From contig CANGNS010000002.1 of NCBI GenBank assembly GCA_947455465.1, positions 82,424 to 114,423 on the forward strand: a stretch of DNA of 32,000 nucleotides. Direction: 5' to 3'. This document shows positions 3,033-19,227 of the stretch, piece by piece. The notes below the pieces were generated by a model. It worked only from the letters and a program-made list of their open reading frames with translations, did no database searches and was not told where the DNA came from. Both the position numbers and the translations under genes were made by a program. Numbering within the stretch: position 1 is the first letter of the stretch; each line of letters begins with the position of its first letter. The stretch comes from Comamonadaceae bacterium. GTDB lineage: Bacteria; Pseudomonadota; Gammaproteobacteria; Burkholderiales; Burkholderiaceae_C.

Positions 3033-3160
3033 TCAGCATATGACATGCTTTTTACCCGTCTTTTTATATCCAATAAAAACAAAAAAATACTTATATATCA
3101 ACAGCTTAGGCATCTTTTTGTCCAAAATAGAATTTTTGCAATTTGACAAATCTGAGGAAA

Positions 3161-3190
3161 AAGTGTATCTTTTAGTGTATCTTTTTTAGA
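3161..3190 (+). repeat. Tandem pair of GTGTATCTTT decamers, a possible integrase arm-type site, 17 nt upstream of the int start
   Basis: AAGTGTATCTTTTAGTGTATCTTTTTTAGA here matches AAGTGTATCTTTGGGTGTATCTTTTTAGA at 26186-26214, in the same orientation and just inside the two island ends. Confidence 0.4.
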
Positions 3191-3206
3191 GAAAATTGCT
3201 TAAAAA

Positions 3207-4412
3207 ATGAGCAAACTCAATGCCCTCAAAATCAAGTCAATCAGCAAAATCGGTATGCATTCTGACGGTGGTGGATTGTACTTAAAGGTGCAATCATCAG
3301 CGAAAACTAGCTCAGTAAACAAAAGTTGGATTTTTCGATGGGGAGCAAAAGGCGCAAACACAATGGGGTTGGGGTCGCTCCGAGATGTGTCGCTGTCAGA
3401 GGCAAGGGGGTTAGCAAGCGAGTGTCACAGAATGGTTGCTCGTGGACTAAATCCCCGCGATGAACGTGAAAAACTTAAATCTGAACGGCTCGCAAAAGCA
3501 TCAAGCTCCATCACTTTCATGGCTGCGTCTGAGCAATACATTGAGACTCACCACCACTCTTGGAAAAATGTAAAGCATAAGCAGCAATGGGAGAAAACGC
3601 TTGAAACATATGCCCATCCAAAGATTGGAAATGTATCCTGTGCTGATGTGACAAAGGCGCAGGTGCTTTCAATCTTGAAGCCAATCTGGACTGAGAAGCA
3701 CGAGACTGCAACAAGATTGCGTGGTCGCATTGAATCAGTGCTGGATTGGGCAATAGCTAAAGGCTACAGAACAGAACCGAATCCCGCAGTTCTTAAAGGC
3801 AATTTGCAGCCGCTACTGCCTTACTTGCAAAAGCGTCAGCGCATCAAGCATCACAACGCCATGCACTATGACGATGTTCCCAAATTCTTCGCCACGATCA
3901 AAGACGATCCAACTATTTCGGCCCGTGCACTGGTGTTTTGCTTACTGACAGCGACAAGAACATCAGAAGCAGTGAATGCCACCTGGAAAGAAATTGACTT
4001 TGCGAAAAATACTTGGATCATTCCCAAAGAAAGAATGAAGCGCGGAATTGAGCACCGAGTGCCACTAGCATCTCAGGTGTGTGAGATGCTGGGGTTCATT
4101 AAGAGAGCCAACAATGACTTTGTTTTTTGCAGTGAGGTACGAAAAACTAAACCAATTTCAAACATGACAATGTTGCAATTTCTTCAACGTAAAGAAGGGC
4201 TGGAGAAGCTAACGGTTCATGGGTTTAGATCATCATTCAGAGACTGGGCTGCTGAAAAAGGAAACTTCGCAAGGGAAGTTTGTGAGCAGGCATTGGCTCA
4301 CGCATTGAAAGATCAGACGGAGGCAGCTTATCAACGGGCTGACTACTTTGAGAAGCGGACTGCGTTGATGCAGGAATGGGCAGACTACTGCTTTGGCGAA
4401 AAAAGTAGATGA
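3207..4412 (+). CDS. int: P4-type tyrosine integrase
   Basis: N-terminal arm-binding-type domain (LKIKSISKIGMHSDGGGLYLKV...WIFRW). Catalytic residues lie in LLTATRTSE (R), HGFRSSFRDWA (HxxR) and LAHAL...AAYQRAD (H, Y). Confidence 0.9.
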   Translation: MSKLNALKIKSISKIGMHSDGGGLYLKVQSSAKTSSVNKSWIFRWGAKGANTMGLGSLRDVSLSEARGLASECHRMVARGLNPRDEREKLKSERLAKASSSITFMAASEQYIETHHHSWKNVKHKQQWEKTLETYAHPKIGNVSCADVTKAQVLSILKPIWTEKHETATRLRGRIESVLDWAIAKGYRTEPNPAVLKGNLQPLLPYLQKRQRIKHHNAMHYDDVPKFFATIKDDPTISARALVFCLLTATRTSEAVNATWKEIDFAKNTWIIPKERMKRGIEHRVPLASQVCEMLGFIKRANNDFVFCSEVRKTKPISNMTMLQFLQRKEGLEKLTVHGFRSSFRDWAAEKGNFAREVCEQALAHALKDQTEAAYQRADYFEKRTALMQEWADYCFGEKSR

Positions 4413-4451
4413 ATCAGCCCTCGTTGATTCACCTACTCTTTCTGAGAAGCA

Positions 4452-4643
4452 CTAGCTCTTATTGATAAGAGCCAAGATTTCAGACTCACGCCAGCAAGTC
4501 GTCTTTGGTCCCAGTTTTATGGGCTGTGGAAATCTGCCTTCTGCCACGCCTTGCCACCAAGCCGCTTTTGAGATTGGCAGGTAGCCAAAAGAAGCTCCCT
4601 TCTTGTCACGTACGATATCTTTAACTCTTAATAACTTATCCAT
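4452..4643 (-). CDS. alpA: AlpA-family excisionase/transcriptional regulator
   Basis: 63 aa. LLRVKDIV...ISKAAWWQGVAEGRFPQPIKLGPKTTCWRESEI matches the AlpA/Xis MerR-like HTH signature. The gene is convergent with int. Confidence 0.85.
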   Translation of the reverse strand: MDKLLRVKDIVRDKKGASFGYLPISKAAWWQGVAEGRFPQPIKLGPKTTCWRESEILALINKS

Positions 4644-4702
4644 AAATAAAAACCCTTAAAAATTGCATCATTAAATTATTGAAATTTATACTTCAATTGA
4701 TT

Positions 4703-5218
4703 TTAAGAATTTAATGCCATTAAATTCTCCTCTTCAGTCTCACTACCAACTGACGGACCTGAAATTATTGAAAATCTCTGTGCCGCCCCATCGGAATGGA
4801 TGCGTATTTTTCCAAAACAAACATACCGAAGTTTCTCATTTGAGCAAAATGCAATTTCAATCCATCCAGAATTCAGAAAAGGGGAAATTGCATCTCTGAT
4901 ATCAGATAATGTTGCATCCTCCTCTTCTGATTCATCCACATTATCCCAATCCTCATTATTCATTTCAGAAGGCAATTTTTTATAATCCACATCATCAGTA
5001 TCGCAATAACAATGAAACATGGTGTACTTTGTGGGGGAAACTGTAGGATACTGAGAACAATAATCAGAACGAAAAATTGAATTCTCCTCATCGTCAAAAA
5101 TCCATTTGCCACCCGAAGTATCCCAAACAAAATTATTCAATGCATCTGCAAGCATTGAATAATTAATCTGACATTCGTCTGACTTTGTAAAAGTAAAAAC
5201 GCCATATGAATCAGCCAT
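4703..5218 (-). CDS. Hypothetical acidic protein
   Basis: 171-aa ORF with no competing frame and acidic runs (DNVDESEEEDATLSD, SETEEEN). No family recognised. Confidence 0.55.
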   Translation of the reverse strand: MADSYGVFTFTKSDECQINYSMLADALNNFVWDTSGGKWIFDDEENSIFRSDYCSQYPTVSPTKYTMFHCYCDTDDVDYKKLPSEMNNEDWDNVDESEEEDATLSDIRDAISPFLNSGWIEIAFCSNEKLRYVCFGKIRIHSDGAAQRFSIISGPSVGSETEEENLMALNS

Positions 5219-5556
5219 AAAATCACCTTTATATAAAGTAAACCTACCACTACCTCAATATTTGCCACACCATGCAACAAATTACTTTCAAATCTCAGCG
5301 TAGTCGCTGAAATTGAATCTATGAATGTCGCTTATGAAATCTGATAATTCATAAATCACATCTAGCGACAGATTGCTAAATGGATCGACAGATCAATCTC
5401 TGTCAATGCTAATCATCAATATACTGTCTTTATAATGAATATAATTCATGTTTAATTTCTTACTTGTCTTCATATTTGCTCCAAATTTAATTTAAAAATC
5501 TAAAATATCAAAAGAATCAATTATCTGATTCAGACTCTAGTTTATTGCAAAACACA

Positions 5557-5783
5557 TTTTTTGATAATCTGTTTTGTGTGGACCACTCAACTTGAATAAT
5601 CCACTTGAATCTAAATGATCTAATTGACTCAGGACTCAGTATATAGATAAAGGTGCTTTTTGATAATCTATTCTGCGTGGACCACTCATATTTAAATTAC
5701 CCATCGCGGGACAGATTTCCCTAAATGCAAATATTAATATACCAATTTTGAACTGATTTGATAATGAGTTTATAGTGGACCAA
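5557..5783 (+). promoter_or_regulatory. Three phased copies of TTGATAAT-N9-GTGGACCA(C/A), operator-like
   Basis: TTGATAAT lies at 5561, 5660 and 5758. GTGGACCAC lies at 5578 and 5677, and GTGGACCAA at 5775. The spacer is always 9 nt and copies are 99 and 98 bp apart. GTGGACCAC is a 9-bp palindrome. Confidence 0.5.
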
Positions 5784-6133
5784 GCATGTTTATAAGTAAT
5801 ACGCTTACAGATTAAGGATTACTATAAAAGGAGTTTTTCTGTTCCAAATTGAACAACTTCTATAGCTAAGGGGCGGCGGTCGAAGCTGGTGCACTCGCCA
5901 AAGTAGCCTAGCGAATGTGAATTGAATGCTTTGAGCGATCCAACTTGCGAGCTACTTGCAGCTCAGACAAGTACGAGCATAGGACGCAAAAGTTCAATGG
6001 GATAAGCTGACATCAGTCAGTGCTAACACAATTAGAGCGTTAGACTGAACAAAGTGCTTGACAGATCAGTGTAGTTGATTCACAGTTGAAGACGTGTGGA
6101 CCTTAATATTAATTATGAAAAATACTCATTGAT

Positions 6134-6454
6134 ATGAAAAAAACAATAAGTAAATTAAATGAACATTATTTCATAATTTCATTTTTACTGGCGTCAGGTT
6201 TCGCCAACCCCGCCGCTAGTCAAGATATAATATATCGATGCGGTAAAGAATACACAAATATTATAATTGATCGCAAATATGGAGAATGTATAAGGATAAC
6301 TCTTACCGATAAAGAATGGAAAGATGAGAAAATTCGAATGGATTTATTGCATAAGTGCACCATGGAAGCGGCGAAGGCTCCTACTATGGGTGGCGTAAAT
6401 ATCGGCGTTGAAAGTTGCAAAAAAAGGTATCCTGAAATAATTCGATATCAATGA
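6134..6454 (+). CDS. Small secreted Cys-containing protein, hypothetical
   Basis: N-terminal signal-like segment MKKTISKLNEHYFIISFLLASGFANPAASQ. No family recognised with confidence. Confidence 0.5.
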   Translation: MKKTISKLNEHYFIISFLLASGFANPAASQDIIYRCGKEYTNIIIDRKYGECIRITLTDKEWKDEKIRMDLLHKCTMEAAKAPTMGGVNIGVESCKKRYPEIIRYQ

Positions 6455-6553
6455 TCAATATTTTTATTTAAGATTAAAAAATGCAGTCCTATTAAATGTT
6501 TACATAAAAAATATATTGCATACAAAAATATATTGATATAACGACCATAATAG

Positions 6554-7279
6554 ATGGAATCGCAAATGAAAAATCCACCATGGTCACGTGACGAACACAT
6601 AGTTGCACTTGACTTTTACTTGAAGCATACGCCGCAGATTCCTGGCAAAGAATCAAAGGAAGTAATTCAGCTTAGCGAACTACTAAACAACATTGAAGGC
6701 AAGATTCAAGGCGATAGGACTGAGACTTATCGCAATCCTGCAGGTGTCTACATGAAGTTAATGAACTTCCGAAGGTTTGATCCAGGATACAAAGGCGTGG
6801 GTCTTGCAAACGGAAGTAAAGATGAACAGGTTGTTTGGGATCTGTACGCAAATAAGAAAGACGAACTTTCAAAGTTGGCTGTACAAATTGCACTTTTCAT
6901 GGCGTCAAATGAAGTCAAAGAAACGCTACCTGCTTTAGAGGCTGATGAGGAAGAAGGCAACGAAGGACAATTGCTTAGTAGAGTGCATCGCTATCGTGAG
7001 CGAGATCGGAAATTAGTCAAAAAGGCAAAAGATAAATTTGCGAATGAAAATGGTCGCATATTTTGTCAAGCATGTGGATTTGACTTTGAAACGAAATATG
7101 GTTCAAGAGGTGCAGATTTCATTGAATGTCACCACACTAAGCCCGTTTCTGAACTAGAGGCTAACGGGAAGACTAAAGTCGCTGATCTAGTCCTTCTTTG
7201 CTCAAATTGCCATCGCATTGTTCATAGACGCAAGCCATGGCTAACATTCGCTGAATTGAAGGCTCAGTTGCAACATTAG
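6554..7279 (+). CDS. HNH endonuclease of the predicted restriction endonuclease (COG3183-like) type
   Basis: The C-terminus reads RVHRYRERDRKLVKKAK...CQACGFDFETKYGSRGADFIECHHTKPVSEL...DLVLLCSNCHRIVH. The N-terminal domain reads PPWSRDEHIVALDFYLKH...YMKLMNFRRFDP...SKDEQVVWDLY, as usual for this family. Confidence 0.85.
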   Translation: MESQMKNPPWSRDEHIVALDFYLKHTPQIPGKESKEVIQLSELLNNIEGKIQGDRTETYRNPAGVYMKLMNFRRFDPGYKGVGLANGSKDEQVVWDLYANKKDELSKLAVQIALFMASNEVKETLPALEADEEEGNEGQLLSRVHRYRERDRKLVKKAKDKFANENGRIFCQACGFDFETKYGSRGADFIECHHTKPVSELEANGKTKVADLVLLCSNCHRIVHRRKPWLTFAELKAQLQH

Positions 7280-7291
7280 CCAATAAAAGAG

Positions 7292-8290
7292 TTGTTCGTG
7301 AAATACCAAGAACTTCAACACTTCATCGCATCTGAGATGCGAATGTCACAAATCTATCAGCCAATCATGTTGATTGAGTTGCTAAAGAACAATGGTAGTG
7401 CATCAGTCAATCAAATCGCTCAAGCAATCCTCAACAAAGACCCAACACAGATTGAGTACTTCTCACTTATAGTGAAGAACATGGTTGGCAAGGTTCTGAC
7501 GAAGAATCGTGGTATCACGGAAAAGAATAAAGACACATACACTTTGATTGGCAGTGATGGACTCACAACTGATCAAATCAAATTATTGATTGATCTTTGC
7601 CAACAAAAGATTGATGAGTTTGAACAAAAGCGCGGCGACAGCGTGTGGAGTCATCGTAGGCGTGGACACAGACCAATTAGTGGATCAGTCAGATATGAAG
7701 TTCTCAGCCGTGCGAAGGGACGTTGCGAACTGTGTGGCATTTCTAATGAAGAGAAGATGCTCGAAGTTGATCACATCTTTCCAAAGTCGCTTGGTGGCAA
7801 AGATGAACTGTCCAACTACCAAGCACTTTGCTATTCGTGCAATGCTGCGAAACGCAATACAGACGACACAGACTTTCGCTTGTTCAAGACCATGTACGAA
7901 CATCGTGAAGCGAATTGTTTGTTCTGCGACGTTCAGTCGAATGATAGATCACGTATCGTCAGCGAGAATAATTTAGCGTATGCGATGCGTGATGGATTTC
8001 CAGTCACGCACGGTCATACATTGTTCATCCCCAAGCGCCATGTGTTGGACTACTTTGGATTGACTCAGGCAGAGACAAACGCGGTGAATAGTCTCATACA
8101 GGAGCAGAAGAAATTATTGCAAGCTAGCGATAAGAGTATTGATGGGTTCAACATTGGCATGAACTGTGGCTCAAGTGCTGGGCAGACAGTCTTTCACTGC
8201 CATGTGCATCTAATCCCTAGACGCGCTGGCGATGTTGAGAATCCGCGTGGTGGCGTTAGACATGTGATCAGTGGTAAAGGCTATTACTGA
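7292..8290 (+). CDS. Three-domain fusion: N-terminal winged-helix-like region, HNH nuclease, C-terminal HIT (histidine triad) domain
   Basis: HNH motif: CELCGISNEEKMLEVDHIFPKSLGGKDELSNYQALCYSCNAAKRN. HIT motif: FPVTHGHTLFIPKRHV...GFNIGMNCGSSAGQTVFHCHVHLIPRRAGD. The start is uncertain: TTG at 7292, GTG at 7298 or ATG at 7337. Confidence 0.85.
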   Translation: MFVKYQELQHFIASEMRMSQIYQPIMLIELLKNNGSASVNQIAQAILNKDPTQIEYFSLIVKNMVGKVLTKNRGITEKNKDTYTLIGSDGLTTDQIKLLIDLCQQKIDEFEQKRGDSVWSHRRRGHRPISGSVRYEVLSRAKGRCELCGISNEEKMLEVDHIFPKSLGGKDELSNYQALCYSCNAAKRNTDDTDFRLFKTMYEHREANCLFCDVQSNDRSRIVSENNLAYAMRDGFPVTHGHTLFIPKRHVLDYFGLTQAETNAVNSLIQEQKKLLQASDKSIDGFNIGMNCGSSAGQTVFHCHVHLIPRRAGDVENPRGGVRHVISGKGYY

Positions 8291-8379
8291 AACCGCATGT
8301 GACTCCATGCCCAACGTTTTTTTAATTTTTATGATGTGCCACTCCATCAAGTCTTGATGAATAACATGACGAGGTTGCT

Positions 8380-8697
8380 ATGACTCAAATCTATGCACGA
8401 AAAAACTTTCGACTACCCGAAAAAGTTTCAAGCGACATCATCTCACAGTGGCAAGAATTGCTCCACGATGCAGCAATCGAAGGTGGAGGCTTTGATGATA
8501 TCGATGTTTTTTACTCTGAAAAAGAAAGAGTCATCGGGGTAAGCGTTCCGATTGAGAATGACCTTATGCTGACACTTGAAGCTGGCGCCATTCTTGGCTA
8601 CGTTACAGCTGAAGTGAACAGATCAGAGCTATATTCACTAGAGCGCTGGATGTCGGTTCATGACGAAAATGGTGATGTGATTGAGTCGACACTTTGA
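8380..8697 (+). CDS. Small acidic hypothetical protein
   Basis: 105 aa with a GAGG RBS upstream (acgaggttgctATG). By my count it has about 20 D/E against 8 K/R. No family recognised. Confidence 0.55.
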   Translation: MTQIYARKNFRLPEKVSSDIISQWQELLHDAAIEGGGFDDIDVFYSEKERVIGVSVPIENDLMLTLEAGAILGYVTAEVNRSELYSLERWMSVHDENGDVIESTL

Positions 8698-8720
8698 TTT
8701 CGGTAATAGGATGAAGTAAC

Positions 8721-8795
8721 GATGTTGAGACCCCACGTGGTGGCGTTAGGCATGTGATCAGTGGCAAGGGGTATTACGAAGTGAAAGACGAATGA
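8721..8795 (+). pseudogene. Orphan 3' fragment of a second HIT-domain gene
   Basis: 8721-8777 matches 8231-8287, the end of the HNH-HIT gene, at 50 of 57 nt. It encodes DVETPRGGVRHVISGKGYY against DVENPRGGVRHVISGKGYY. An in-frame TGA lies at 8712-8714 just upstream, so no intact ORF exists. Confidence 0.65.
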
Positions 8796-8857
8796 TCTTG
8801 GCTGACGATAATTCAAATTAACTATGTTGGGTAATGAAATTCAGAGAGATTCGATAA

Positions 8858-11671
8858 GTGACATCTAAGCACGGTCAGGCATCATTACTAATTTCACAAG
8901 GCGTCTTTGCCTCGGTGAAGACGTTTCGTGAATTTGAGCAGCGTGTGTCCAATTTATTTCAGACAAATACAAAGGCTCAAGGTGATGCGTTTGAAATTTT
9001 CGTTGAAGCCTATCTAGCAACTCAGCAAATACTGCAATGCCAAGAAACCTGGCTGGTAGGTGACATACCAGTTCACGTTCGGGAAAAACTTAATCTGCCA
9101 AACGACTCGAAAGGGATTGACGGCGTCTATAGGTCAATGTCCGATGACTTCGTTCCCTATCAAGTCAAGTTTCGTTCAAATAGACCCGCAATGGGATTCA
9201 ATGAAGTTGCGCCTTTTCTTGGCATCACAGAACGAGCAAGTGATCGACTATTGATCACAAACTGTGACACCATAGCAATCGATGTCAAGAATAGGACGGG
9301 AATACGATCACTGCGTGGTTTTGACTTCGATTCACTAAGCGAAGAGGACTTCTTAGTCATAGAGAACTGGCTCAATAAAAAGCCAGTTAAGCGAAAGCCA
9401 CTGACGCCAGATCCATATCAAGTCGAAGCGTTAGATGCCATTGCGAAGCATCTTGAACACAACGACAGAGGAACAGCGGTCATGGCTTGCGGCACTGGCA
9501 AGACACTCGTGGCATTGTGGGCAGTAGAACAAAGCAATGCAAAAACGATTCTTGTCTTAGTTCCCTCGCTGACTTTATTGCAGCAAACATTAGAGGAATG
9601 GAGTGTTCACAACTCGTGGGGTAAAGACTTTTCTTATCTTTGCGTCTGTAGCGATCCTTCAGTAAATCTAAAGAATGATGAGATTGAAATCGATCCCTCA
9701 GATGTACCCTTCAGAATCGATACAGACCCTGAGATAGTTAGACGCTACCTAGCCCAAGATAACGGCAAAACTAAGATAGTTTTTTCGACCTATCAAAGTA
9801 GCCAAGTTGTCAGCCAAGCGACCAAAGGTGTTTTTGAATTTGACATAGCTGTCTTCGACGAAGCACATAAAACTACGGGATCAGCTGAAGGTAGATTTGC
9901 TCTTGCCCTTAGCGATGAAAACGTAAAAATAAAGAAGCGTCTATTTCTAACCGCTACACCAAAGCATTACGACATTAGTAAACGAGATAAAGATGGTGAG
10001 TTCAAATTTGTCAGTATGGACGATGAATCGGTTTACGGCAAAAGGGCGCATACGCTTACCTTTGGTGATGCTGCAGCCAAAGGAATCATCTGTCCCTACA
10101 AGGTTGTGATTACTTTAATCAATAAGCAAAAAGTTGATGACTTTGCCTTGAAGAACGGAATCACTTTGGTCGAAGGTGACTCTGTCAAAGCCAAGTGGGT
10201 AGCGAGTCAAATCGCCGTTAGTAGTGCGATCAAGCACACAATCGCAACAAAAATTATTACCTTCCACAGTCGTGTAAAAACCGCTCGTGAGTTTGCTAGT
10301 GGTGAGGTCTACGGAATCAAGAAGTTTGTTGATGACTTTGAGGTTTTTCACGTTCACGGCAAGCAAAAAAGTAATGAACGTAAAGATACGATTTCGAAAT
10401 TTAGAAAATCTAGTCGCTCAATCATCACCAACGCTAAGTGTCTAACAGAAGGCGTTGATGTCCCAGCAGTGGATATGGTGGCTTTCGTTGACCCTCGTCA
10501 CAGCAAGATCGATATCGCTCAAGCTGTTGGTAGGGCAATGAGAAAACCAAGAGGCGGAAGTAAAACGGTCGGCTATATCGTTGTTCCCGTTTTTGCTGAA
10601 GATGCCACAGAGCAGTCACTTGAAAGAGCAATTAAGAGTGAGGAATTTAACGATGTTGCTCTAATTTTGAATTCATTATTGGAGCAAGATGAAGAGTTGG
10701 TCGAAATAGTCCGAGAGTTAAAGCAGGCGAAGGGTCGAGGCGAGGTATTTAATCCACAAAGATTCAAAGAGAAAATTGAGGTTATTGGACCGCTGATTAA
10801 ATTAGATGAGTTAACAAATAGTATTTACGTCGAAGTTGTCGATCGTTTAGGTGAGTCGTGGGATGAATCATATGGAAAGTTAAAGAAATTCAAAGACGAA
10901 AATGGTCATTGTCGTGTTCCACAATTGGATTCAGGCAAGAAATCAACATTAGGTCATTGGGTAGCTACACAGAGACGCGCCAAATTAACTTCAACATTGT
11001 CAGAAGACCGTATTAGCAGACTGGACAAACTGAACTTCGCTTGGGATTCATTCGATCAAAAGTGGGAAGAAGGATTCACTGCGCTAGTTGCATTCAAGAA
11101 ACGAAACGGTCATTGCATCGTCCCAAAAGGATATATAGAAAATGGAATTCAGCTCGGCTCTTGGGTTCGAACCAAACGAGCGAGCAGAAAAGATTTAACT
11201 TTGTCAGAAGAGAATATTTCTTCCCTAAATGCCATTGGGTTTATTTGGAAACCCAATGAGGATGCTTGGGAAGAAGGATTTAATGCTCTTGTTGTGTTCA
11301 AACTAAGAGAAGGACATTGCCTTGTCCCTAAGGATCATATTGAAAAAGGGTTCAATCTAGCAAGTTGGGTGCGCAATCAACGGTCTCATAAAACGAACTC
11401 GAAACTATCAGCTGAGAGGACTCGCCGTTTGAATGAAATGGGTTTCGTATGGAATCAGCTAGAGCAGAAGTGGGATGAGCACTTTCAAGCACTTTGCGTC
11501 TTTGAAAAGCAAAATGACCATTGCTTAGTACCAGTCAGTTATACGATAAACGGAATTAATCTTGGGTCTTGGGTACATACGCAAAGGCGTGAATACGGAA
11601 GCAAAAGATTGTCTACCGACCGACAAAATAAATTAGAGGTGTTGGGATTCACCTGGAAAATTAAAAATTGA
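8858..11671 (+). CDS. N-terminal PD-(D/E)xK-like nuclease, SF2 DEAH helicase (ResIII type) and four C-terminal helicase-associated (HA) repeats
   Basis: GTG start. Nuclease-like region: GDAFEIFVEAYL...KGIDGVY...YQVKF. Helicase motifs: I AVMACGTGKT, II VFDEAHKT, III LFLTATP, V/VI CLTEGVDVPAVDMVAF...AQAVGRAMR. Four HA repeats follow, of the form W(D/E)E.F..L..F....GHC.VP......LG.WV..QR. Confidence 0.9.
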   Translation: MTSKHGQASLLISQGVFASVKTFREFEQRVSNLFQTNTKAQGDAFEIFVEAYLATQQILQCQETWLVGDIPVHVREKLNLPNDSKGIDGVYRSMSDDFVPYQVKFRSNRPAMGFNEVAPFLGITERASDRLLITNCDTIAIDVKNRTGIRSLRGFDFDSLSEEDFLVIENWLNKKPVKRKPLTPDPYQVEALDAIAKHLEHNDRGTAVMACGTGKTLVALWAVEQSNAKTILVLVPSLTLLQQTLEEWSVHNSWGKDFSYLCVCSDPSVNLKNDEIEIDPSDVPFRIDTDPEIVRRYLAQDNGKTKIVFSTYQSSQVVSQATKGVFEFDIAVFDEAHKTTGSAEGRFALALSDENVKIKKRLFLTATPKHYDISKRDKDGEFKFVSMDDESVYGKRAHTLTFGDAAAKGIICPYKVVITLINKQKVDDFALKNGITLVEGDSVKAKWVASQIAVSSAIKHTIATKIITFHSRVKTAREFASGEVYGIKKFVDDFEVFHVHGKQKSNERKDTISKFRKSSRSIITNAKCLTEGVDVPAVDMVAFVDPRHSKIDIAQAVGRAMRKPRGGSKTVGYIVVPVFAEDATEQSLERAIKSEEFNDVALILNSLLEQDEELVEIVRELKQAKGRGEVFNPQRFKEKIEVIGPLIKLDELTNSIYVEVVDRLGESWDESYGKLKKFKDENGHCRVPQLDSGKKSTLGHWVATQRRAKLTSTLSEDRISRLDKLNFAWDSFDQKWEEGFTALVAFKKRNGHCIVPKGYIENGIQLGSWVRTKRASRKDLTLSEENISSLNAIGFIWKPNEDAWEEGFNALVVFKLREGHCLVPKDHIEKGFNLASWVRNQRSHKTNSKLSAERTRRLNEMGFVWNQLEQKWDEHFQALCVFEKQNDHCLVPVSYTINGINLGSWVHTQRREYGSKRLSTDRQNKLEVLGFTWKIKN
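10859..11668 (+). repeat. Four in-frame tandem coding repeats of exactly 204 nt (68 aa), the HA domains
   Basis: The Trp codon that opens each repeat sits at 10859, 11063, 11267 and 11471, a constant 204-nt period. Confidence 0.8.
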
Positions 11672-11790
11672 GTTCAAAGTTAGTTTTACGGTTGCTTACT
11701 CCAACTGAGCTAACCTCATAGAACGGATACGCTAAGAGTACGCTCTCACAACATGACTGATTACCATTGATTAGCACTGAACTTTCCGCA

Positions 11791-12444
11791 CTATATTGCT
11801 GTGGACGTACGAATCACTCTATCCAACCACTGATAGTATTTTCTGTTGTCTTGAGATATCTTGTATACCGTGCTAAGTCCATCAAGCAAAATATCGTCAT
11901 CGTATTCGACTGAGACTGAGTCAAGGATTTTCTTGGCATATGGCAGGAAAATTTGTGGTGCGCATGGTGGGACATGCAAAATCTCACATCTGCTTCTAAT
12001 TCCAGCATCAACTTCTTCAAGACGATTCGTGCTGAGAATCGTCAAGTCTGTGCCAAGTGTCTCGTCAAGTTCAATCTTCATCGCATCTGACATAGCAGCT
12101 TTACTCATCAAGAACTCTTCAATGATGATGTAGTTGAATTTCTGATCATTGATAGTGAAGTTCTTGTTGATCATCTTGTTTCTCCCATACAAGTCGTGAA
12201 TGTCAGATGCGTTCTTGAGATCGCTAGATCTGACTTTCTGAAATTGTGCTTCTTTCCGTTCTATGGCGTTTGGTAGCAGTCGCTGAATCAGTGACTTGCC
12301 TGTGCCACTTGTTCCATGCAACAGTAATGGCGCTTCAAGTTCTCCACTCGCATAGGCAAACACTACTTCACTGACTTCGCTGTTGGGATAGACGATTTCG
12401 TGAATAGATTTTGGCGAGTAATTTTTAATGGTTGAGATGATCAT
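11791..12444 (-). CDS. AAA+ ATPase, clamp-loader/RFC-like
   Basis: Walker A LLLHGTSGTGKS, Walker B YIIIEEF, sensor-1 ILSTN, and the SRC motif GIRSRCEIL characteristic of RFC/clamp-loader AAA+ proteins. Confidence 0.75.
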   Translation of the reverse strand: MIISTIKNYSPKSIHEIVYPNSEVSEVVFAYASGELEAPLLLHGTSGTGKSLIQRLLPNAIERKEAQFQKVRSSDLKNASDIHDLYGRNKMINKNFTINDQKFNYIIIEEFLMSKAAMSDAMKIELDETLGTDLTILSTNRLEEVDAGIRSRCEILHVPPCAPQIFLPYAKKILDSVSVEYDDDILLDGLSTVYKISQDNRKYYQWLDRVIRTSTAI

Positions 12445-12498
12445 TTTTTGTATTTGGTTAGATGAGTGAGCTGTTGTTGCAGCTCACTCGTTCAAGAC

Positions 12499-13488
12499 TT
12501 AGATTGCTTTCTCTCGTGTTGTCGAAATCTCTGCTTCAATACGATGCTTTCTAAAGAGAGTTGTTAGCGAGTCGGCGATTGCATACATGGCTTCGTCTGA
12601 TGGTTTTCTGTTGAAGCGAATGACGACTGAGTAGGGTTCGTCACTGTGTTCGTCTTCAGCAGCAGCTTCAACATTGAGACTTGCAGACTGTGAGACACGC
12701 TCAAGCATGACTGATGCAGCACTTGCTTCAAAATCTTGGCCAGACTTTTCTGGCGCAGTGTCAATCGATACAGTGCTGTCACTGACAGTCTCAGAAGCGC
12801 AGGAAACACTTGAATTTGCAGCGTCGTGAGCATCTGTGTGCTCGTCAGTCTGTTCATCGCTCGCAGCGTCTACAGACACTTCTGTGTCTTTTGAGACGCT
12901 AGGTAAAGCAGGCGCGGTGACGCTTGCTGAGGGCATCGTCGGTGTCGCTGGCGATGTGTCAGGTTTGCTTGATTTGTCAGACGAGTCATTGCCCCTGAGC
13001 AACTTGAGCTGAGCACCAGTCAGATGCGCCATGCTCTCGCCCATTGCGACCATCGCCATGAACACGTCAGGGGGAATCTGCGTGATCTCGTAGATGCTCG
13101 TCCAAGACGAGGGCAACAAGTTTGTGGCAGCGATCAAGTCGTCATAGCGTTCGCCAATCGCAAGAAACTTGCGAACTGTTGAGTCTTCAGACTTACGACC
13201 CACGTCTTTCAAGAAGCAGTCGTACTCAGACTTTGCGAGCGTGTTTTTCGCTTCAAAAACGATGCGACACATCTCGATTGTTGACTGAGCAGTCTTTACA
13301 GCGAATTTTGAATATTCGTTGTAAAGACGCTCACGTGCAGTTACGTGATGCTCGATGACTATTCCATCATCAGTTTCAAAGACACTTATTTGACCAAGAC
13401 CATTCTCTAACTCAGAAGTCGAAGAGTTATTGTCGATATCAATGTTTGTTCCATTTTGAACAGATTCATTTTGTGTGTATTCAATCAT
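12499..13488 (-). CDS. Hypothetical protein: helical N-terminal domain (DUF3102-like?) and an acidic Ser/Thr/Asp-rich C-terminal half
   Basis: CRIVFEAKNTLAKSEYDCFLKDVGRKSEDSTVRKFLAIGERYDDL resembles phage/plasmid DUF3102-type helical domains; this resemblance is weak. The C-terminal region is low complexity. Confidence 0.6.
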   Translation of the reverse strand: MIEYTQNESVQNGTNIDIDNNSSTSELENGLGQISVFETDDGIVIEHHVTARERLYNEYSKFAVKTAQSTIEMCRIVFEAKNTLAKSEYDCFLKDVGRKSEDSTVRKFLAIGERYDDLIAATNLLPSSWTSIYEITQIPPDVFMAMVAMGESMAHLTGAQLKLLRGNDSSDKSSKPDTSPATPTMPSASVTAPALPSVSKDTEVSVDAASDEQTDEHTDAHDAANSSVSCASETVSDSTVSIDTAPEKSGQDFEASAASVMLERVSQSASLNVEAAAEDEHSDEPYSVVIRFNRKPSDEAMYAIADSLTTLFRKHRIEAEISTTREKAI

Positions 13489-13496
13489 ATTAATCC

Positions 13497-14159
13497 TTAA
13501 GCCAAGCCAACTTCAGCACGAATTTTTTTGCTACTAGTCACGAAATGATCTAGTTCGTAACCACATTTCTGATGAATGTCCCCATTTGCATCAAAATAGA
13601 ACAACGAAGACCATGATCCATTAACTAACATTTCTAAATCGCAGTTGCGCAAGATGACATCATTCTCAGCAACCCAGAACTTATGTATGTTGTCACCAAC
13701 CAGAGTTGCTGACTCTTCTAAGGCAGCAATAATTGGTTTTTTTATGTTATTTTTTCTGTAATCACACATAGTCCATTTTTCAAATCGTGCATCACCTGCG
13801 TTGAACTTGAAACGATAAATTCCTCCAATATGTTTTGCAAGTTCATTCCAATCTACAGTAGGTTTAACCACGCCTGTATGATTTAGCATGTTTGTAGCAG
13901 GCATGCTTGAAATGAGTGGCATTGCTGTTACAGGATAATTATTTGATTCAGTTAACCAAACAAAATTCTTTCGCTGCATTAATTTCAACAGTCGCTCGTC
14001 TTTTAGAAATCCAGTGGAGTTCTCAAGAATGATTTTCCCACTCTCAATAATTTTGCAGATATGAATACCCTTTGTATAGTGATATACAGACTTGAATTTA
14101 GCGCAAGCCATTTTTCGATTTATACGAGCACGAAGTTGCATTTTCTTTGTAGTAGACAT
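13497..14159 (-). CDS. Hypothetical protein
   Basis: 220-aa ORF separated by 8 nt from the downstream gene of the same operon. No family recognised. Confidence 0.6.
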   Translation of the reverse strand: MSTTKKMQLRARINRKMACAKFKSVYHYTKGIHICKIIESGKIILENSTGFLKDERLLKLMQRKNFVWLTESNNYPVTAMPLISSMPATNMLNHTGVVKPTVDWNELAKHIGGIYRFKFNAGDARFEKWTMCDYRKNNIKKPIIAALEESATLVGDNIHKFWVAENDVILRNCDLEMLVNGSWSSLFYFDANGDIHQKCGYELDHFVTSSKKIRAEVGLA

Positions 14160-14224
14160 AAAAACCTCTATTAAAAATTAGATAAATTGATTATTTTTAG
14201 AATTCGATAGATCGTTAGATATGC

Positions 14225-14503
14225 TCATACGAACCCACAAGATTGAGCGCGATCAAACCATGCAATAGAGTTGCCACATTCATCGTTGTAGATGAAGTAG
14301 CGAGCATCTTCACAATAGCCAACATCCCAGTGCGTCACTGATGCAAATGTCAGCTCTTGCTCAAACTCCATCAAGTCACATTGCTTATTAGCGTTGTTTG
14401 AACCCACAAACAAGAACAAATCATTTTCTTGCTTGTGAATCTGCTTCTTACCAGTGCAGATGTCACAGTCGCAATAAGACTTCATCATGTTACTTTTACT
14501 CAT
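14225..14503 (-). CDS. Hypothetical Cys-rich small protein
   Basis: Track ORF 14225..14539 trimmed to the ATG at 14503, which follows GAAGGAAATT (RBS). It contains CDCDICTGKK. No family recognised. Confidence 0.5.
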   Translation of the reverse strand: MSKSNMMKSYCDCDICTGKKQIHKQENDLFLFVGSNNANKQCDLMEFEQELTFASVTHWDVGYCEDARYFIYNDECGNSIAWFDRAQSCGFV

Positions 14504-14590
14504 AATTTCCTTCTTTCTTTCAGTTAATATAAAACACAAATTTGAATCAACTATTTGATTCAGACTCTATTATATGCAATACTGCATATT

Positions 14591-14714
14591 TTGATAATTC
14601 AATATTCGTGGACCACGCATCTTGAATAATCAATTGAATCTAAATGATTTAATCGACTCAGTATGTATTATATAGGCTCGGTGATTTTTTATTAATCAAT
14701 AATATGTGGTCCAG
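14591..14714 (+). promoter_or_regulatory. Two phased copies of the TTGATAAT-N9-GTGGACCAC motif, second locus
   Basis: TTGATAAT at 14591 with GTGGACCAC at 14608. TTATTAAT at 14689 with GTGGTCCAG at 14706. The spacer is 9 nt in both and the copies are 98 bp apart. The site lies in the divergent intergenic region between the 14503 (-) and 14795 (+) starts. Confidence 0.45.
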
Positions 14715-14794
14715 CTAGTTTAAACTAGATGCCATTTTGATTAATATGTTTGTCCATGTAGAATCTCAAAATCGTTCCAAATTGAACAAAACCC

Positions 14795-15523
14795 ATGACC
14801 AAACCAAAGCACTCAAAGACACTTGCGTTAAACAAAGAGCCATTTCGACTCTGGTATGAGTTCTTGAAACGGGCTAAGGCGAAGGGAATGAAGGTGTCGA
14901 AGGACTACAGTGAGTGGGGAGACACGAGTGTGGGTTTTGACAAGTGGTGGCGAGAGCATGGCGCTAACCTGGTGCCAGTCGTTGCAAATGGCGTCGCTCT
15001 AGCTTCAGAAGAGACGCTCCATGATGACAACTACTACCTGTTTGCCATTCCAAAACATCTGTCAGCTCGCCAAACCCGTGTCGAAGCTGAACACTTGATG
15101 AAGAAATTGAAGGCTGAACATGGGGAGATCAAACTGAATACAAGATGGCGCTTGACTGAGGGCAAGAGCCTGAGATACGAAGCTATTCGCGCCTACCTGC
15201 ATGCCATTGACTGCAAAGACAAGTTGATCAAACAAGCAGTGGCTGCTGGTAAGTCAGCTGCTGATGTGAAGGTTGTGGATGTATTGGCAGCATTGCGTCT
15301 GTATTACATCAAGAAGCATGACAGATACAAGGGTAAAGGCGACCTGATGCCACAGCGACTGACACATGGTGATGGAGGATACGAGACCGATCCAAGCAAG
15401 ATCATCGTCAGCGACCATAGTGACCCAAAAGTTGCCACTCAGTCGATCAATGCTGTGCGTGACTATTTGAAGAGAGGTGAAGAGACGATGAAAGCTGTAG
15501 CTGAAGGCAGATTTCCTTCTTGA
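14795..15523 (+). CDS. Hypothetical protein
   Basis: 242-aa ORF directly downstream of the motif-bearing intergenic region. It ends in AVAEGRFPS, echoing the AlpA motif VAEGRFP. No family recognised. Confidence 0.65.
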   Translation: MTKPKHSKTLALNKEPFRLWYEFLKRAKAKGMKVSKDYSEWGDTSVGFDKWWREHGANLVPVVANGVALASEETLHDDNYYLFAIPKHLSARQTRVEAEHLMKKLKAEHGEIKLNTRWRLTEGKSLRYEAIRAYLHAIDCKDKLIKQAVAAGKSAADVKVVDVLAALRLYYIKKHDRYKGKGDLMPQRLTHGDGGYETDPSKIIVSDHSDPKVATQSINAVRDYLKRGEETMKAVAEGRFPS

Positions 15524-15557
15524 TGCCAGATCAAAATCACACTTGCACTGATTTGCT

Positions 15558-16745
15558 ATGAACGCACAACTGTGGACAAAAGTAACTGTTATTGCTGATG
15601 CGTTGAAATATTCTTCGATTAGTGAGTGGCGCAAACATAGTTCTTCAGCCTATGCAATTTGTTGCAGAAACAAGTGGAATGAAGAAGCCTGCGCCCATAT
15701 GTCCAAGAAAAAACAGGCAAACGGATTCTGGACTGACGAGAAGGTTCTTGCTGAATCTCGTAAGTTTTCATCAACTGCAGATTGGGCTGCAACGAGCCCT
15801 TCCTCATATGTTGTCGCAAAGCGGAAGAAGCTTGTCCCCACAACAATGCCTAGAGCGTTAGTTCATAACCAATGGACTAAATCACAAGTAGCTAAGGTCG
15901 CAAAAGAATTCAAGACTCGTGGAGAATTTAGAAGTACGCAGCCAAGTGCATACTCCATAGCAATTAGCAACGGCTGGCTTGATGATGTCTGCGTTCATAT
16001 GTTGAACACAGCACCATGGTTTGGTCCCAGAGTAATTAGAGAGTTTTTAATCGCACACGATATAGAATTCATCGCTGAGCATAAGTTCAATACTGATTCA
16101 GTGGTCAAAAGATACCCATTTGACTTTTACTTACCGAAGTTAAATTGCCTTATTGAATATCAAGGAAGACAACATAAGGATGGTTGGTTCAAGGATTTAG
16201 CTGATGCAAAGGCGATTCAGTTGCGAGATAAATCAAAACGATCATTTGCAGCAGAGCAAGACATAAATTACCTTGAGTTAGATCAGCGAACAAGGAAGGT
16301 GTTGTTGGAAACATTACGTTTGGAACTTAAGAAAATTGCTGAGATCGTAGGCGTTAGATACAGTGATGCACCAAGGCAACTTACAGAGGCTGAGTTGAGT
16401 GAAATTGAAACAGCATTCAAGTGGAATCATAAGTCAGTAAAAGAAGTTATTGATACTTGTACGTCACTTAAAGAATTCCGTCAGAAGTATCCATCAGCAT
16501 ATGACTACGCTTTGAAAAACGATTTATTGAAGAGCTTGGGTAGTGATCTAGCTAGAATCACAGTGCACGGAAAATACACCAAAAAATATGTGACGGAGGT
16601 TGCTGTAACTTGTACCACAAGAAACGAATTCAAAGTCAAAAACAAAGGCGCCTGGGCTGCTGCTCAGCGCAATGGGTGGCTTGATGAAGTATGCGCTCAC
16701 ATGCCAAAGCATGTTCAAAGGAAAAATAAGCAATCTGATCTTTAA
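15558..16745 (+). CDS. PD-(D/E)xK (Vsr/DUF559-like) nuclease core flanked by five ~35-aa repeats
   Basis: Core: RYPFDFYLPKLNCLIEYQGRQH. Repeats include SEWRKHSSSAYAICCRNKWNEEACAHM, GEFRSTQPSAYSIAISNGWLDDVCVHM, KEFRQKYPSAYDYALKNDLL and NEFKVKNKGAWAAAQRNGWLDEVCAHM. Confidence 0.65.
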   Translation: MNAQLWTKVTVIADALKYSSISEWRKHSSSAYAICCRNKWNEEACAHMSKKKQANGFWTDEKVLAESRKFSSTADWAATSPSSYVVAKRKKLVPTTMPRALVHNQWTKSQVAKVAKEFKTRGEFRSTQPSAYSIAISNGWLDDVCVHMLNTAPWFGPRVIREFLIAHDIEFIAEHKFNTDSVVKRYPFDFYLPKLNCLIEYQGRQHKDGWFKDLADAKAIQLRDKSKRSFAAEQDINYLELDQRTRKVLLETLRLELKKIAEIVGVRYSDAPRQLTEAELSEIETAFKWNHKSVKEVIDTCTSLKEFRQKYPSAYDYALKNDLLKSLGSDLARITVHGKYTKKYVTEVAVTCTTRNEFKVKNKGAWAAAQRNGWLDEVCAHMPKHVQRKNKQSDL

Positions 16746-16794
16746 TCGACATCAGTGGTGTTAAACTAACAGACCCTATCCACAACATATCAAT

Positions 16795-17091
16795 ATGACA
16801 ACACTAAAAGAACTCATTGCACAACGTGAAGCACTTGAAAAGCAAATCGCTGAAGTGCGCCAAACTGAACTTGCAGATGCAATTGCAAAAGTTCGTGCAT
16901 TGATCACTGAATTTGGACTGACTCAGTCAGACATCTTTGGTGGCACGGCGAAGGTGCGTAAAGTCAAAGATGCAACGAGCAAAGTTGCTGCTAAGTACCG
17001 TGACCCGATTTCTGGCAAAGAATGGTCTGGACGTGGACTCGCACCAAAGTGGTTGCAAGGCAAAGACAAGTCTCAGTACCTGATCGCTTGA
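16795..17091 (+). CDS. H-NS family nucleoid-associated protein
   Basis: N-terminal coiled coil (LKELIAQREALEKQIAEVRQ). The C-terminal DNA-binding motif is AAKYRDPISGKEWSGRGLAPKWL. Confidence 0.85.
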   Translation: MTTLKELIAQREALEKQIAEVRQTELADAIAKVRALITEFGLTQSDIFGGTAKVRKVKDATSKVAAKYRDPISGKEWSGRGLAPKWLQGKDKSQYLIA

Positions 17092-17115
17092 TAGCTCAAG
17101 TCTTAGACTGACAAG

Positions 17116-17146
17116 AAGCCCATGTGAATTGCGTGGGCTTTTTTTA
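17116..17146 (+). terminator. Rho-independent terminator after the H-NS-like gene
   Basis: AAGCCCA-loop-TGGGCTT stem followed by a T run (17139-17145). It sits between convergent genes. Confidence 0.6.
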
Positions 17147-17154
17147 TGCGTGAA

Positions 17155-17754: not shown

Positions 17755-18166
17755 TGAACTTTTACTCCTAAATCAATCAATAGAGAAGTATTTAGTGTGC
17801 TCCCTTTGATTCGGTCGGACAATAGTTTTTGCCGAAATATTTTTCCTATATAAATCAACGACCTACGTCATACCAAATGAAATGTGAGAAAGTATTGATT
17901 TTCAGCCGCAGCATTCCATTTGTCGATTCAGTGAATTTCAGTGGCTCATAGTCTTACGTGTGCGTATCTGATTGAAAGTGAACCTTCAGTTCACTTAGTG
18001 CTTTCGCAACTCATTTCGCTTCGCTCATTCGTTTGCTCAGCACTGAATCTATTAATTTAATCTAATAGTTCACTTCAATAAATTGATCTGAATGGAAAAC
18101 TAAATGAATTAATGAAGTAATTGAATTCGGTATCTGGTCTTGTGTTCTCATCTCTGTACTTGAGCC

Positions 18167-18199
18167 GTAACCACCCTTCGAAAGCGAAGAGGTGGTTAC
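18167..18199 (+). other. Strong hairpin inside a ~1 kb non-coding gap
   Basis: GTAACCACCCTTCG-AAAG-CGAAG(A)GGTGGTTAC gives a 14-bp stem with one bulged A. It is followed by TTTCGTCTTGT, so it could terminate a plus-strand transcript. Confidence 0.4.
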
Positions 18200-19179: not shown

Positions 19180-19203
19180 ACTCATCATACTCAAAACAAG
19201 AAG

Positions 19204-19227
19204 AGTCACTTGAGGTGACTTTTTTTG
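19204..19227 (+). terminator. Rho-independent terminator
   Basis: AGTCACT-TGA-GGTGACT stem followed by T7 (19220-19227). Confidence 0.55.

Follow-up and report, generated by a model that had tools for sequence, protein, structure and literature searches.

What might a restriction-type nuclease gain from carrying a nucleotide-processing enzyme on the same chain? The question is raised by a gene at 7292..8290 (+ strand) of the window, that is, the whole 32,000-nucleotide stretch of Comamonadaceae bacterium DNA analysed here (GenBank assembly GCA_947455465.1, contig CANGNS010000002.1, positions 82,424 to 114,423). The gene is complete, and a sequence-only reading had divided its product into a winged-helix (wH)-like N-terminus, a central HNH nuclease domain, and a complete C-terminal HIT domain, a division that was borne out by Pfam, AlphaFold2, and Foldseek. 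We consider the product to be an autonomous single-polypeptide restriction-type nuclease, probably serving defence, which is carried as cargo of an integrative island and represents the fused form of a widespread HIT-plus-nuclease module. The probability of this reading is, in our estimate, roughly 0.55.

The open reading frame (ORF) encodes 332 amino acids from TTG 7292. The true start is probably GTG 7298, giving a 330-residue product, because residues 5-15 are conserved family-wide (L8, F11), an AAAGAG lies 6 nt upstream of this codon, and the exact 330-residue protein occurs in a public collection. A 315-residue call from ATG 7343 is likewise on public record, and neither entry is named. 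All three peptides that had been quoted for this protein were found in the ORF, namely MSQIYQP... at residues 18-47, EVDHIFPKSLGG...NYQALCYSCNAAK at residues 158-187, and HCHVHLIPR at residues 302-310.

The possibility that a frameshift or assembly artefact had joined two genes, which the sequence-only reading itself had raised, was rejected. The best 120 database matches were all 317-358 amino acids long and 73-92% identical to the window protein, and all carried the same four Pfam models in the same architecture. Furthermore, an exhaustive search of representatives at 50% identity yielded 233 clusters at E<1e-30, with full-length members down to approximately 33% identity, and the identical protein was present on several independent assemblies. 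Since hundreds of colinear homologues share this architecture and the same protein recurs on independent assemblies, the fusion cannot be an artefact.

The HNH (His-Me finger) nuclease domain occupies residues 132-195 (7685..7876, + strand), as judged from Pfam HNH/HNH_5, partial NCBIfam matches, and residue conservation. Both Pfam models matched residues 145-195 (HNH, E 5.8e-12, 46 bits, gathering threshold (GA) 21.4; HNH_5, E 4.4e-13, 49 bits, GA 27.5). The catalytic residues D160-H161, N175, and N184 constitute the H-N-N variant as in Cas9/IscB, and C145, C148, C180, and C183 are the ligands of a Cys4 zinc site. In a 68-sequence alignment of the family, D160, N184, C145, C148, and C180 were invariant, and H161, N175, and C183 were conserved in at least 90%. 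By sequence, the domain therefore has the catalytic His, the structural Asn, the metal-binding Asn/His, and the Cys4 zinc site of the HNH/His-Me superfamily. The AlphaFold2 confidence in this region was low (pLDDT <50) despite the intact conserved motifs, and in the full-length model, which was built on 68 homologues, the inter-domain geometry is unreliable (pTM 0.46). Matches of the protein to NCBIfam (IscB/Cas9d HNH, HinT, and ATP adenylyltransferase) and to PADLOC (ThsC HIT and PtuB HNH) were all at the level of single domains and far below the curated cut-offs.

The HIT domain spans residues 207-312 (7910..8227, + strand), an assignment based on Pfam, sequence matches in the PDB, Foldseek, and invariant residues. 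A C-terminal domain of some other fold would have undone the fusion as first described; instead, Pfam HIT matched residues 218-312 (E 6.5e-20, 72 bits, GA 21.5) over profile positions 4-97 of 98, which is a complete domain, and the HIT alpha+beta fold was recovered by both AlphaFold2 (pLDDT 86-97 over residues 201-310) and Foldseek. The latter gave a probability of 1.00 to 3wo5, 6af2, 3o0m, 3imi, and Fhit (TM on the target 0.6-0.77; E ~1e-7), the top matches being the mycobacterial Ap4A phosphorylase Rv2613c, bacterial HIT proteins, and Fhit. The domain has a C209-x-x-C212 zinc motif, an H242/P247/R249/H250 box, and the triad H302-x-H304-x-H306, of which the whole stretch H302-C-H304-V-H306-L-I was invariant in the alignment. 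Sequence matches in the PDB were to bacterial HIT proteins, Ap4A phosphorylase, and Fhit, and the domain belongs to the Fhit/COG0537/Ap4A-phosphorylase branch. The equivalog model of ATP adenylyltransferase/Ap4A phosphorylase (NF052622) was not reached (55 bits against a cut-off of 290), so that the likeness to these enzymes is confined to the HIT domain. The alignment further revealed a clade-specific C-terminal tail, R-x-G-D-x3-P-x-G-G-V-R-x-V-I-x-G-K, at residues 313-332 (8228..8287, + strand). Homology of this tail to Ap4A phosphorylases was considered and dropped because the phmmer alignments end at residue 315.

The N-terminal part was examined with a separate AlphaFold2 model of residues 1-128 (pLDDT 82.6, pTM 0.77), which contained helices at 22-32, 39-49, and 54-72, a hairpin at 76-85, and then a helix at 93-125. 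The winged-helix core was placed at residues 20-88 (7349..7555, + strand), where the invariant Y22-Q23-P24 starts the first helix. The long helix of residues 93-125 (7568..7666, + strand) links the winged helix to the HNH domain, carries a C103 that was invariant in the 68-sequence alignment, and may contribute to oligomerisation. No Pfam match was obtained in the first 130 residues, and a profile search of PDB sequences with the N-terminal domain was empty. Foldseek against the PDB returned generic winged-helix matches alone (FOXN1, E2F-DP, MarR-family, and archaeal virus F93; best E 0.075, probability 0.87-0.93), and no structure of a sulfur-binding domain (SBD), SRA/PUA, or DpnI was among the top 50. 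The proposal that this region might be a modified-DNA reader of the SBD or SRA kind thus gained no support, and the model points to a generic winged helix rather than to an SBD, SRA, or DpnI-like reader. An SBD identity had been prompted by the likeness of YQPxxLxxLL to the HKPLLLL helix of sulfur-binding domains; it was not borne out by length, motif pattern, Foldseek, or the profile search.

A phyletic survey indicated that the fusion is widespread and abundant in metagenomes, and not rare. In addition to the clusters described above, another query retrieved a second clade of 326-328 amino acids at 51-62% identity. Full-length copies were found in approximately 25 GTDB species representatives; the carriers include Polynucleobacter, Polaromonas, Nitrosomonas, Luminiphilus, Marinobacter, Rhodobacteraceae, Bradyrhizobiaceae, Bacteroidia/Flavobacteriales, Synechococcus/Cyanobium, Verrucomicrobiae, Lentisphaeria, Rubrobacteraceae, and archaea of the Nitrososphaeraceae/Nitrosopumilaceae. 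By larger group, the homologues range over Proteobacteria, Bacteroidota, Cyanobacteria, Verrucomicrobia, and Thaumarchaeota. Eight full-length members were located on IMG/VR viral contigs, and no full-length copy was found in PLSDB plasmids or in 50,697 GenBank phage records. The public names, where there are any, are 'HIT domain-containing protein', 'Ap4A HIT family hydrolase', and 'ATP adenylyltransferase' (JGI).

Natural variants of the protein are informative on the relation between its two enzymes. Of the 237 full-length proteins from the two abundant clades sampled, 233 kept both the D-H motif of the HNH domain and the triad of the HIT domain. A set of 38 full-length representatives at 50% identity included 16 with a retained HNH domain, a degenerate triad (e.g., HCHTRIIP or HYSIRLAP), and no tail, in which the HIT fold and the PKRHV box stayed in place, and 5 that had lost the HNH D-H with the triad and the tail kept. 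Because HIT-dead lineages with HNH and HNH-dead lineages with HIT both exist, the two catalytic activities can be lost independently. The triad and the tail are lost together while the fold stays, which ties the tail to HIT catalysis and suggests that the fold has a second, non-catalytic value, either structural or regulatory. Shorter wH-HIT proteins without the HNH domain (234-293 amino acids) form at least 13 clusters at 50% identity, with the triad present in 14 of the 15 examined. In the tree, these forms were polyphyletic, placed beside HNH-dead full-length forms, and nested in HNH-containing clades, indicating secondary losses; hence, the simple story of an ancestral wH-HIT core was rejected.

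One sublineage stands out by its neighbours. In two Sphingomonadales genomes (L027:2768-9925 and L028), a family member whose HIT domain is degenerate or missing is encoded divergently next to dndC (PAPS reductase), dndD (SMC-like ATPase), and dndA (cysteine desulfurase), after which comes a 405-residue methyltransferase-like protein. This member may be a restriction partner linked to phosphorothioation, and other winged helix-turn-helix (wHTH)-HNH nucleases have been recorded in the same kind of dnd neighbourhood (PMC10853773).

The HIT clade recurs with restriction-type nucleases outside the fusion family. Forty-five GTDB loci were analysed that match residues ~176-332 of the window protein only; they are the best-scoring subset of 571 matches and not a random sample. 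All carry the HIT domain plus a tail of the form P-R-R-x-G-D-x3-P-x-G-G-V-R-x-V-I-P. At 12 loci (Bacteroidota and others), the HIT domain is encoded directly downstream of an HNH_4 protein of 344-380 amino acids, as a stand-alone protein in 2 and fused to a small S-adenosylmethionine (SAM)-methyltransferase-like domain (285-365 amino acids) in 10. The latter arrangement is a two-gene operon, mostly of Bacteroidota, in which HNH_4 (344-371 amino acids) is followed by the fusion of a class-I SAM-methyltransferase-like domain with HIT (L058 (6577-8489), L061, L062, L063, L064, L070, L072, L073, L078, and L079). PADLOC has no system-specific model for either protein of this operon, the fusion matching the generic ThsC HIT model only.

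Other settings involved nucleases of other kinds. At three loci (L026, L030, and L065), a HIT protein of 119-134 residues is followed directly by an HNH protein of 334-352 residues. At three more (L029, L032, and L071), the HIT protein adjoins a NOV_C nuclease, with DUF3427 in L029, and the PADLOC models matched were PDC-S36 (E down to 7e-98) and PD-T4-1. In L047:7998-11966 (1322 amino acids) and L080:4138-7503 (1121 amino acids), the HIT domain forms the N-terminus of a PLD-ResIII helicase, and L047, which also has S24 and DUF3427, shows the SauUSI architecture and matched a type IV mREase model at E 5e-118. The Bacillaceae examples pair an 808-811-residue PLD-ResIII protein with a stand-alone HIT protein, whose gene lies directly upstream (L059) or within a few kb (L052 and L056). 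RefSeq plasmids gave the same picture: on pPNAP03 of Polaromonas naphthalenivorans CJ2, plasmid 2 of Aromatoleum aromaticum EbN1, and a plasmid of Hymenobacter canadensis, the gene for an annotated 'HNH endonuclease' of ~340 residues is abutted or overlapped by that for a 'HIT family protein', and in a fourth plasmid, from Persicobacter psychrovividus, the adjoining 340-residue protein is annotated as hypothetical.

A HIT domain with both the triad and the P-x-G-G-V-R tail was therefore found fused to or beside nucleases of at least six restriction-type architectures. The split forms are those of L026, L030, L065, L029, L032, L071, L046-L079, L059, and the four plasmids, L047 and L080 are the HIT-PLD-helicase fusions, and the window protein is the fused form. 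The partner HNH proteins have no N-terminal domain in common with the window protein, indicating independent combinations rather than fragments of one gene. In a neighbour-joining tree of HIT domains, the stand-alone proteins of L026, L029, L030, and L032 nested among the fused HIT domains, and that of L026 was 68% identical to the HIT domain of the window; such trees, built on domains of ~125 residues, have low resolution. Since this clade lies beside or inside several restriction-type nucleases, the HIT domain and the nuclease very likely act together, and HIT chemistry seems to benefit restriction by several unrelated nucleases. The earlier claim that the coupling of the two matters functionally is strengthened by these architectures; the two roles proposed for it, processing of adenylylated DNA ends and control of the nuclease by a nucleotide ligand, are conjectural. 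Stand-alone HIT proteins of this clade were also observed in phages: PHROG 19494 matched residues 221-325 at E 2e-29, and gp4 of Streptomyces phage phiSASD1 matched residues 209-332, tail included.

The gene is carried by a low-GC island of 23 kb (3157..26211; GC 0.27-0.46 against ~0.62 in the host), which was delimited by a pair of 30-nt direct repeats with 90% identity (3157-3186 and 26182-26211). A P4-type integrase is encoded at the left end (3207-4412), and tRNA-Ser(TGA) lies just outside the right end (26264-26353). A truncated second integrase at 17155-17754 (- strand) hints at two tandem elements. Intergenic repeats of ~88-130 nt in three copies, 65-82% identical and ~9 kb apart, were noted in the island at 5514-5700 and 14544-14675, and a second short low-GC stretch (0.36-0.39) was seen in the high-GC host DNA at ~29000-31000, with same-strand ORFs at 28926-29483, 29651-30172, and 30182-31024.

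Neighbouring ORFs were taken from a simple ORF caller. Immediately upstream, a separate 241-residue HNH protein (6554..7279, + strand; HNH at residues 171-226) ends 12 nt before the fusion ORF. Its N-terminal 130 residues matched PADLOC 'HNH' models only and its HNH region weakly matched a type IV model; this protein, too, is probably a solitary nuclease of restriction type carried by the island. Downstream are an ORF of 105 residues (8380..8697, + strand), which had no family matches in Pfam, NCBIfam, or PADLOC, and a ResIII/SF2 helicase of 937 residues (8858..11671, + strand) with four C-terminal HA (helicase-associated) domains, recognised by Pfam and PADLOC. The first ~620 residues of the helicase matched a PADLOC type IIG/type I restriction model (type IIG restriction-methylase, E 2e-79) and PbeA models, and no methylase domain was seen in it. 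Between these two ORFs lies a relic second copy of the end of the fusion gene (8720..8777, + strand), 490 bp downstream and 88% identical to 8230-8287. The 58 nt that encode the tail at the end of the gene (DVENPRGGVRHVISGKGYY) correspond to a relic reading DVETPRGGVRHVISGKGYYEVKDE and then a stop, and the similarity ceases on both sides. The relic resembles what would remain of the 3' end of an allele that was displaced, and the position of the 105-residue ORF between the tail copies suggests that a cassette was replaced through recombination within this conserved stretch. A scan for promoters and terminators around the gene found no signal stronger than in shuffled sequence.

None of these neighbours accompanies the family. 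After ORF calling and clustering in 30 loci, no conserved neighbour was found, and in a Pfam census of the two nearest ORFs per side at 33 loci (114 proteins), no family occurred more than four times. The commonest families were ResIII, SLFN-type helicases (some with GIY-YIG), integrases/recombinases, GmrSD, AbiEii-type ATPases, MazG-like proteins, and C5 methylases. A homologue with 92% identity has a different context, adjoining an integrase. The absence of a conserved neighbour and the varied defence and mobile surroundings indicate that the gene is autonomous and travels as cargo of defence and mobile islands. As candidates for a conserved partner, the 241-residue HNH protein, the 105-residue ORF, and the 937-residue helicase were rejected, for they do not recur beside homologues, with the sole exception of a weak HNH-domain match in L005 and L042. 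The C5 methylases were likewise judged unlikely to be cognate modification enzymes: they were present in 3-4 loci (4 of 30 by one count), and the same census contained Vsr (2 proteins) and an HpaII restriction endonuclease (1), which suggests that they belong to restriction-modification systems of their own. A nuclease without a cognate methyltransferase, as in type IV restriction, was thus the pattern across the 33 loci.

On this basis, a mechanism can be proposed. The winged helix would place the protein on DNA, presumably giving target or self/non-self discrimination, and the HNH domain, with its Cys4 zinc site and D160-H161/N175/N184, would cut the DNA. Judging by its intact residues, the HIT domain is predicted to be a catalytically competent nucleotide alpha-phosphate hydrolase or transferase, which may bind and turn over a nucleotide of the Ap4A/ATP/NMP-X type and thereby license or limit the nuclease. 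Such nucleotide-dependent licensing is the likeliest role for the HIT domain, yet we put it forward tentatively; it would accord with the occurrence of HIT as a separate subunit and with the retention of the fold in lineages that have lost catalysis. HIT proteins are normally obligate dimers, and a HIT dimer may also pair two HNH domains for double-strand cleavage. As no cognate methylase accompanies the gene, self/non-self discrimination would have to be intrinsic, and we infer that it is either modification-dependent or infection-triggered.

Several points weigh against this account. By Pfam, Foldseek, and PDB profile search, nothing specifically links the winged helix to a known modified-DNA reader, and type IV behaviour is inferred solely from the absence of a cognate methylase. 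AlphaFold2 modelled the HNH domain and the relative placement of the domains with poor confidence. No nuclease adjoins the HIT gene at about half of the 45 HIT-only loci, where the scanned flanks are mostly housekeeping genes (FTHFS, guaA, mnmA, ggt, and a P-type ATPase), which means that the HIT clade is not exclusive to defence. The HNH domain has been deleted or inactivated several times with the winged helix and a catalytic HIT domain retained, a pattern less expected of a pure HNH regulator than of a HIT enzyme acting in its own right, perhaps on DNA. Finally, the open-access literature searched contained no description of an HNH-HIT fusion or of any link between HIT and restriction nucleases; an earlier mention elsewhere is possible.

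Other readings make HIT an effector. Conceivably, though doubtfully in our judgement, HIT is the second catalytic effector of an unrecognised two-enzyme principle of restriction, working with whichever nuclease is attached (HNH, PD-(D/E)XK-like NOV_C, or PLD-helicase) and acting on DNA or on a nucleotide cofactor. On the DNA side, it might strip ligase-made 5'-adenylates so that breaks stay unsealed, or act on another nucleotidyl-DNA adduct; on the cofactor side, it might destroy what an invader needs for DNA hypermodification or replication. A rival reading, which we regard as unlikely, has a HIT domain held by the winged helix act on nucleotidylated ends, e.g., by removing the 5'-AMP that a ligase places at the nuclease nick, so that repair is undone and restriction becomes irreversible. 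HIT chemistry on 5'-adenylated DNA is established for aprataxin, and HNH, NOV_C/PD-(D/E)XK-like, and PLD nucleases are all expected to leave ligatable ends, so a post-cleavage role would fit HIT partners of these three folds. Moreover, the combination of winged helix and HIT with intact triad and tail persists in the polyphyletic HNH-less clusters and in HNH-dead clades, suggesting a DNA-targeted job of its own, although the HNH-less forms could be mere detoxified remnants. Against this stand the Fhit/COG0537/Ap4A-phosphorylase affiliation, the absence of any aprataxin chain among 61 PDB sequence matches (E<=1) or the Foldseek top 50, the absence of a C-terminal zinc finger as a DNA clamp, and the solitary small proteins in housekeeping contexts among the close relatives in the clade, which point to a small-molecule substrate. 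The aprataxin-like processing of adenylylated ends put forward in the sequence-only reading consequently gained no specific support.

Alternatively, HIT might hydrolyse or phosphorolyse a free nucleotide conjugate that the invader needs, such as modified dNTPs/dNMPs or the NDP-sugar donors used in DNA hypermodification, leaving phage DNA cuttable by a partner type IV nuclease; in phosphorothioate (PT) contexts, it might desulfurise dNMPS from cut PT-DNA. NDP-sugar phosphorylases are known within the HIT superfamily, and Ap4A phosphorylases were the best Foldseek matches, even if the NCBIfam ATP-adenylyltransferase score falls far short of its cut-off (55 against 290). The recurrent partners are type IV-like (SauUSI-like mREase_IV models and DUF3427, a reader of 5mC/5hmC; PMC6765204), HINT1 offers a precedent for desulfuration in turning dGMPS into dGMP with release of H2S (PMC8775712), and one sublineage adjoins dndC-dndD-dndA. 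However, it is precisely in the dnd-adjacent members that the HIT domain is degenerate, depletion of UDP-glucose or a similar compound would harm the host too, and the substrate is conjectural; we find this account quite improbable. Little credence is likewise given to a mainly structural HIT domain, an existing dimerisation module that brings two HNH domains together, its catalytic site being a passenger. A double-strand break by an HNH restriction enzyme requires two active sites, which obligate HIT dimers would supply, and the 16 of 38 representatives with a destroyed triad, an intact HNH domain, and a preserved HIT fold are in line with this; nevertheless, 233 of the 237 sequences of the abundant clades have an intact triad and tail, HIT is often a separate small protein adjoining the nuclease, and HNH-dead or HNH-deleted lineages retain a catalytic HIT. 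That the gene has no part in defence at all, being a selfish homing-type HNH element or a DNA-repair enzyme merely located in islands, is very improbable. In its favour, homing endonucleases often contain an HNH domain, IMG/VR viral contigs carry eight of the full-length members, and the relic 3' end beside the gene shows past recombination at the locus. Against it, neither a host gene nor an intron is interrupted by the gene, the genes around it are of many defence or mobile types, proteins partnered with this HIT clade elsewhere match defence models (mREase_IV, PDC-S36, and PD-T4-1), and the GenBank phage records contain no full-length copy.

An autonomous restriction-type nuclease with a HIT partner would be new in several respects. 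Restriction-type nucleases are among the best-studied bacterial defences, and no HIT partner appears for them in the open-access literature searched; PADLOC 2.0 has no dedicated model for the wH-HNH-HIT family, ThsC being its sole HIT model. The protein is apparently a restriction-type HNH nuclease with an unprecedented HIT module, and the broader HIT-plus-nuclease pattern is apparently unreported as well. The co-occurrence of one HIT clade with at least six nuclease architectures, fused or adjacent, across many bacterial phyla, Thaumarchaeota, and plasmids matches the classic pattern by which gene fusion and adjacency signal a shared pathway. Gating of the nuclease by HIT would give type IV-like enzymes a new kind of nucleotide control, and action on DNA ends or on the supply of nucleotides to the invader would amount to a new step in restriction; if the two-enzyme principle is true, the wH-HNH-HIT protein and the split HIT-plus-HNH plasmid operons would be a new, widespread defence family. 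A bacterial DNA deadenylase or a nucleotide-controlled nickase are possible reagents. The protein is small (330 amino acids), autonomous, and rich in natural variants (HIT-dead, HNH-dead, and HNH-deleted), which makes the question directly testable.

Among known systems, the wH-HNH enzymes with a DpnI-like winged helix resemble the window protein in having a winged helix and then HNH in one chain of a few hundred residues, in being solitary and without a cognate methylase, and in a restriction-type role. They lack HIT, and their winged helix reads 6mA, whereas that of the window protein has no specific match to it and an invariant YQP motif of its own. The phosphorothioate-dependent SBD-HNH/ScoMcrA endonucleases (EcoWI and SprMcrA; PMC7461809, PMC6224610) also join an N-terminal DNA reader of the wHTH class to HNH, and the window family has its one dnd-adjacent sublineage. 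These enzymes have no HIT domain, and their SBD is ~170 residues long with a sulfur cavity formed by H-R/K and Y-P residues ~48 residues apart (PMC6224610, PMC7461809), while the N-terminal domain of the window protein has ~90 residues plus the helix, YQP only, and no upstream H-K/R; together with the Foldseek top 50 and the empty profile search, this places it outside the SBD-HNH group.

With regard to the HIT domain, aprataxin likewise joins HIT to a DNA-binding module, but it is eukaryotic, belongs to another HIT branch, has a C2H2 zinc finger in place of the winged helix, and carries no nuclease domain; the tail of the window protein has no Cys/His finger pattern, and the structure and sequence searches described above retrieved no aprataxin. 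The closest proteins in both sequence (E 1e-17 to 1e-9) and fold are bacterial COG0537 HIT proteins, Rv2613c, and Fhit, which share the G-Q-T-x-x-H-x-H-x-H-x-x-P-R and CxxC motifs with the window protein. These are, however, stand-alone small enzymes acting on free dinucleoside polyphosphates, without the P-x-G-G-V-R-x-V-I-P tail and without a nuclease partner. Recruitment of HIT to defence is exemplified by ThsC of the PADLOC 'Thoeris type II' system (PMC8565338), the best PADLOC match of the window HIT domain (E 2.7e-10). It belongs to a different system (ThsA/ThsB signalling), the match is a generic similarity at the HIT level, and none of the Thoeris genes is present in the window.

The best functional analogy for nucleotide gating is provided by GmrSD, BrxU, and SspE, single-chain defence nucleases that combine a nucleotide-hydrolysing domain with a His-Me nuclease. 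They consist of a DUF262 NTPase (ParB/Srx-like) and DUF1524 in another domain order and with another DNA reader, and they are not related in sequence to the window protein, in which neither Pfam nor PADLOC matched DUF262 (GmrSD_N) or DUF1524; the likeness is one of analogy only. The NTPase modules of GmrSD, SspE, BrxU, and McrBC are nonetheless our proposed parallel for licensing by HIT. A connection through the HIT domain itself exists with the SauUSI-type PLD-helicase-DUF3427 type IV enzymes (PMC6765204), in which relatives of the window HIT are fused at the N-terminus (L047 and L080) or encoded directly upstream (L059). These enzymes are built from a PLD nuclease, an ATP-driven helicase, and a DUF3427 reader, all three of which are absent from the window protein, yet the HIT domain appears to serve the same purpose in both.

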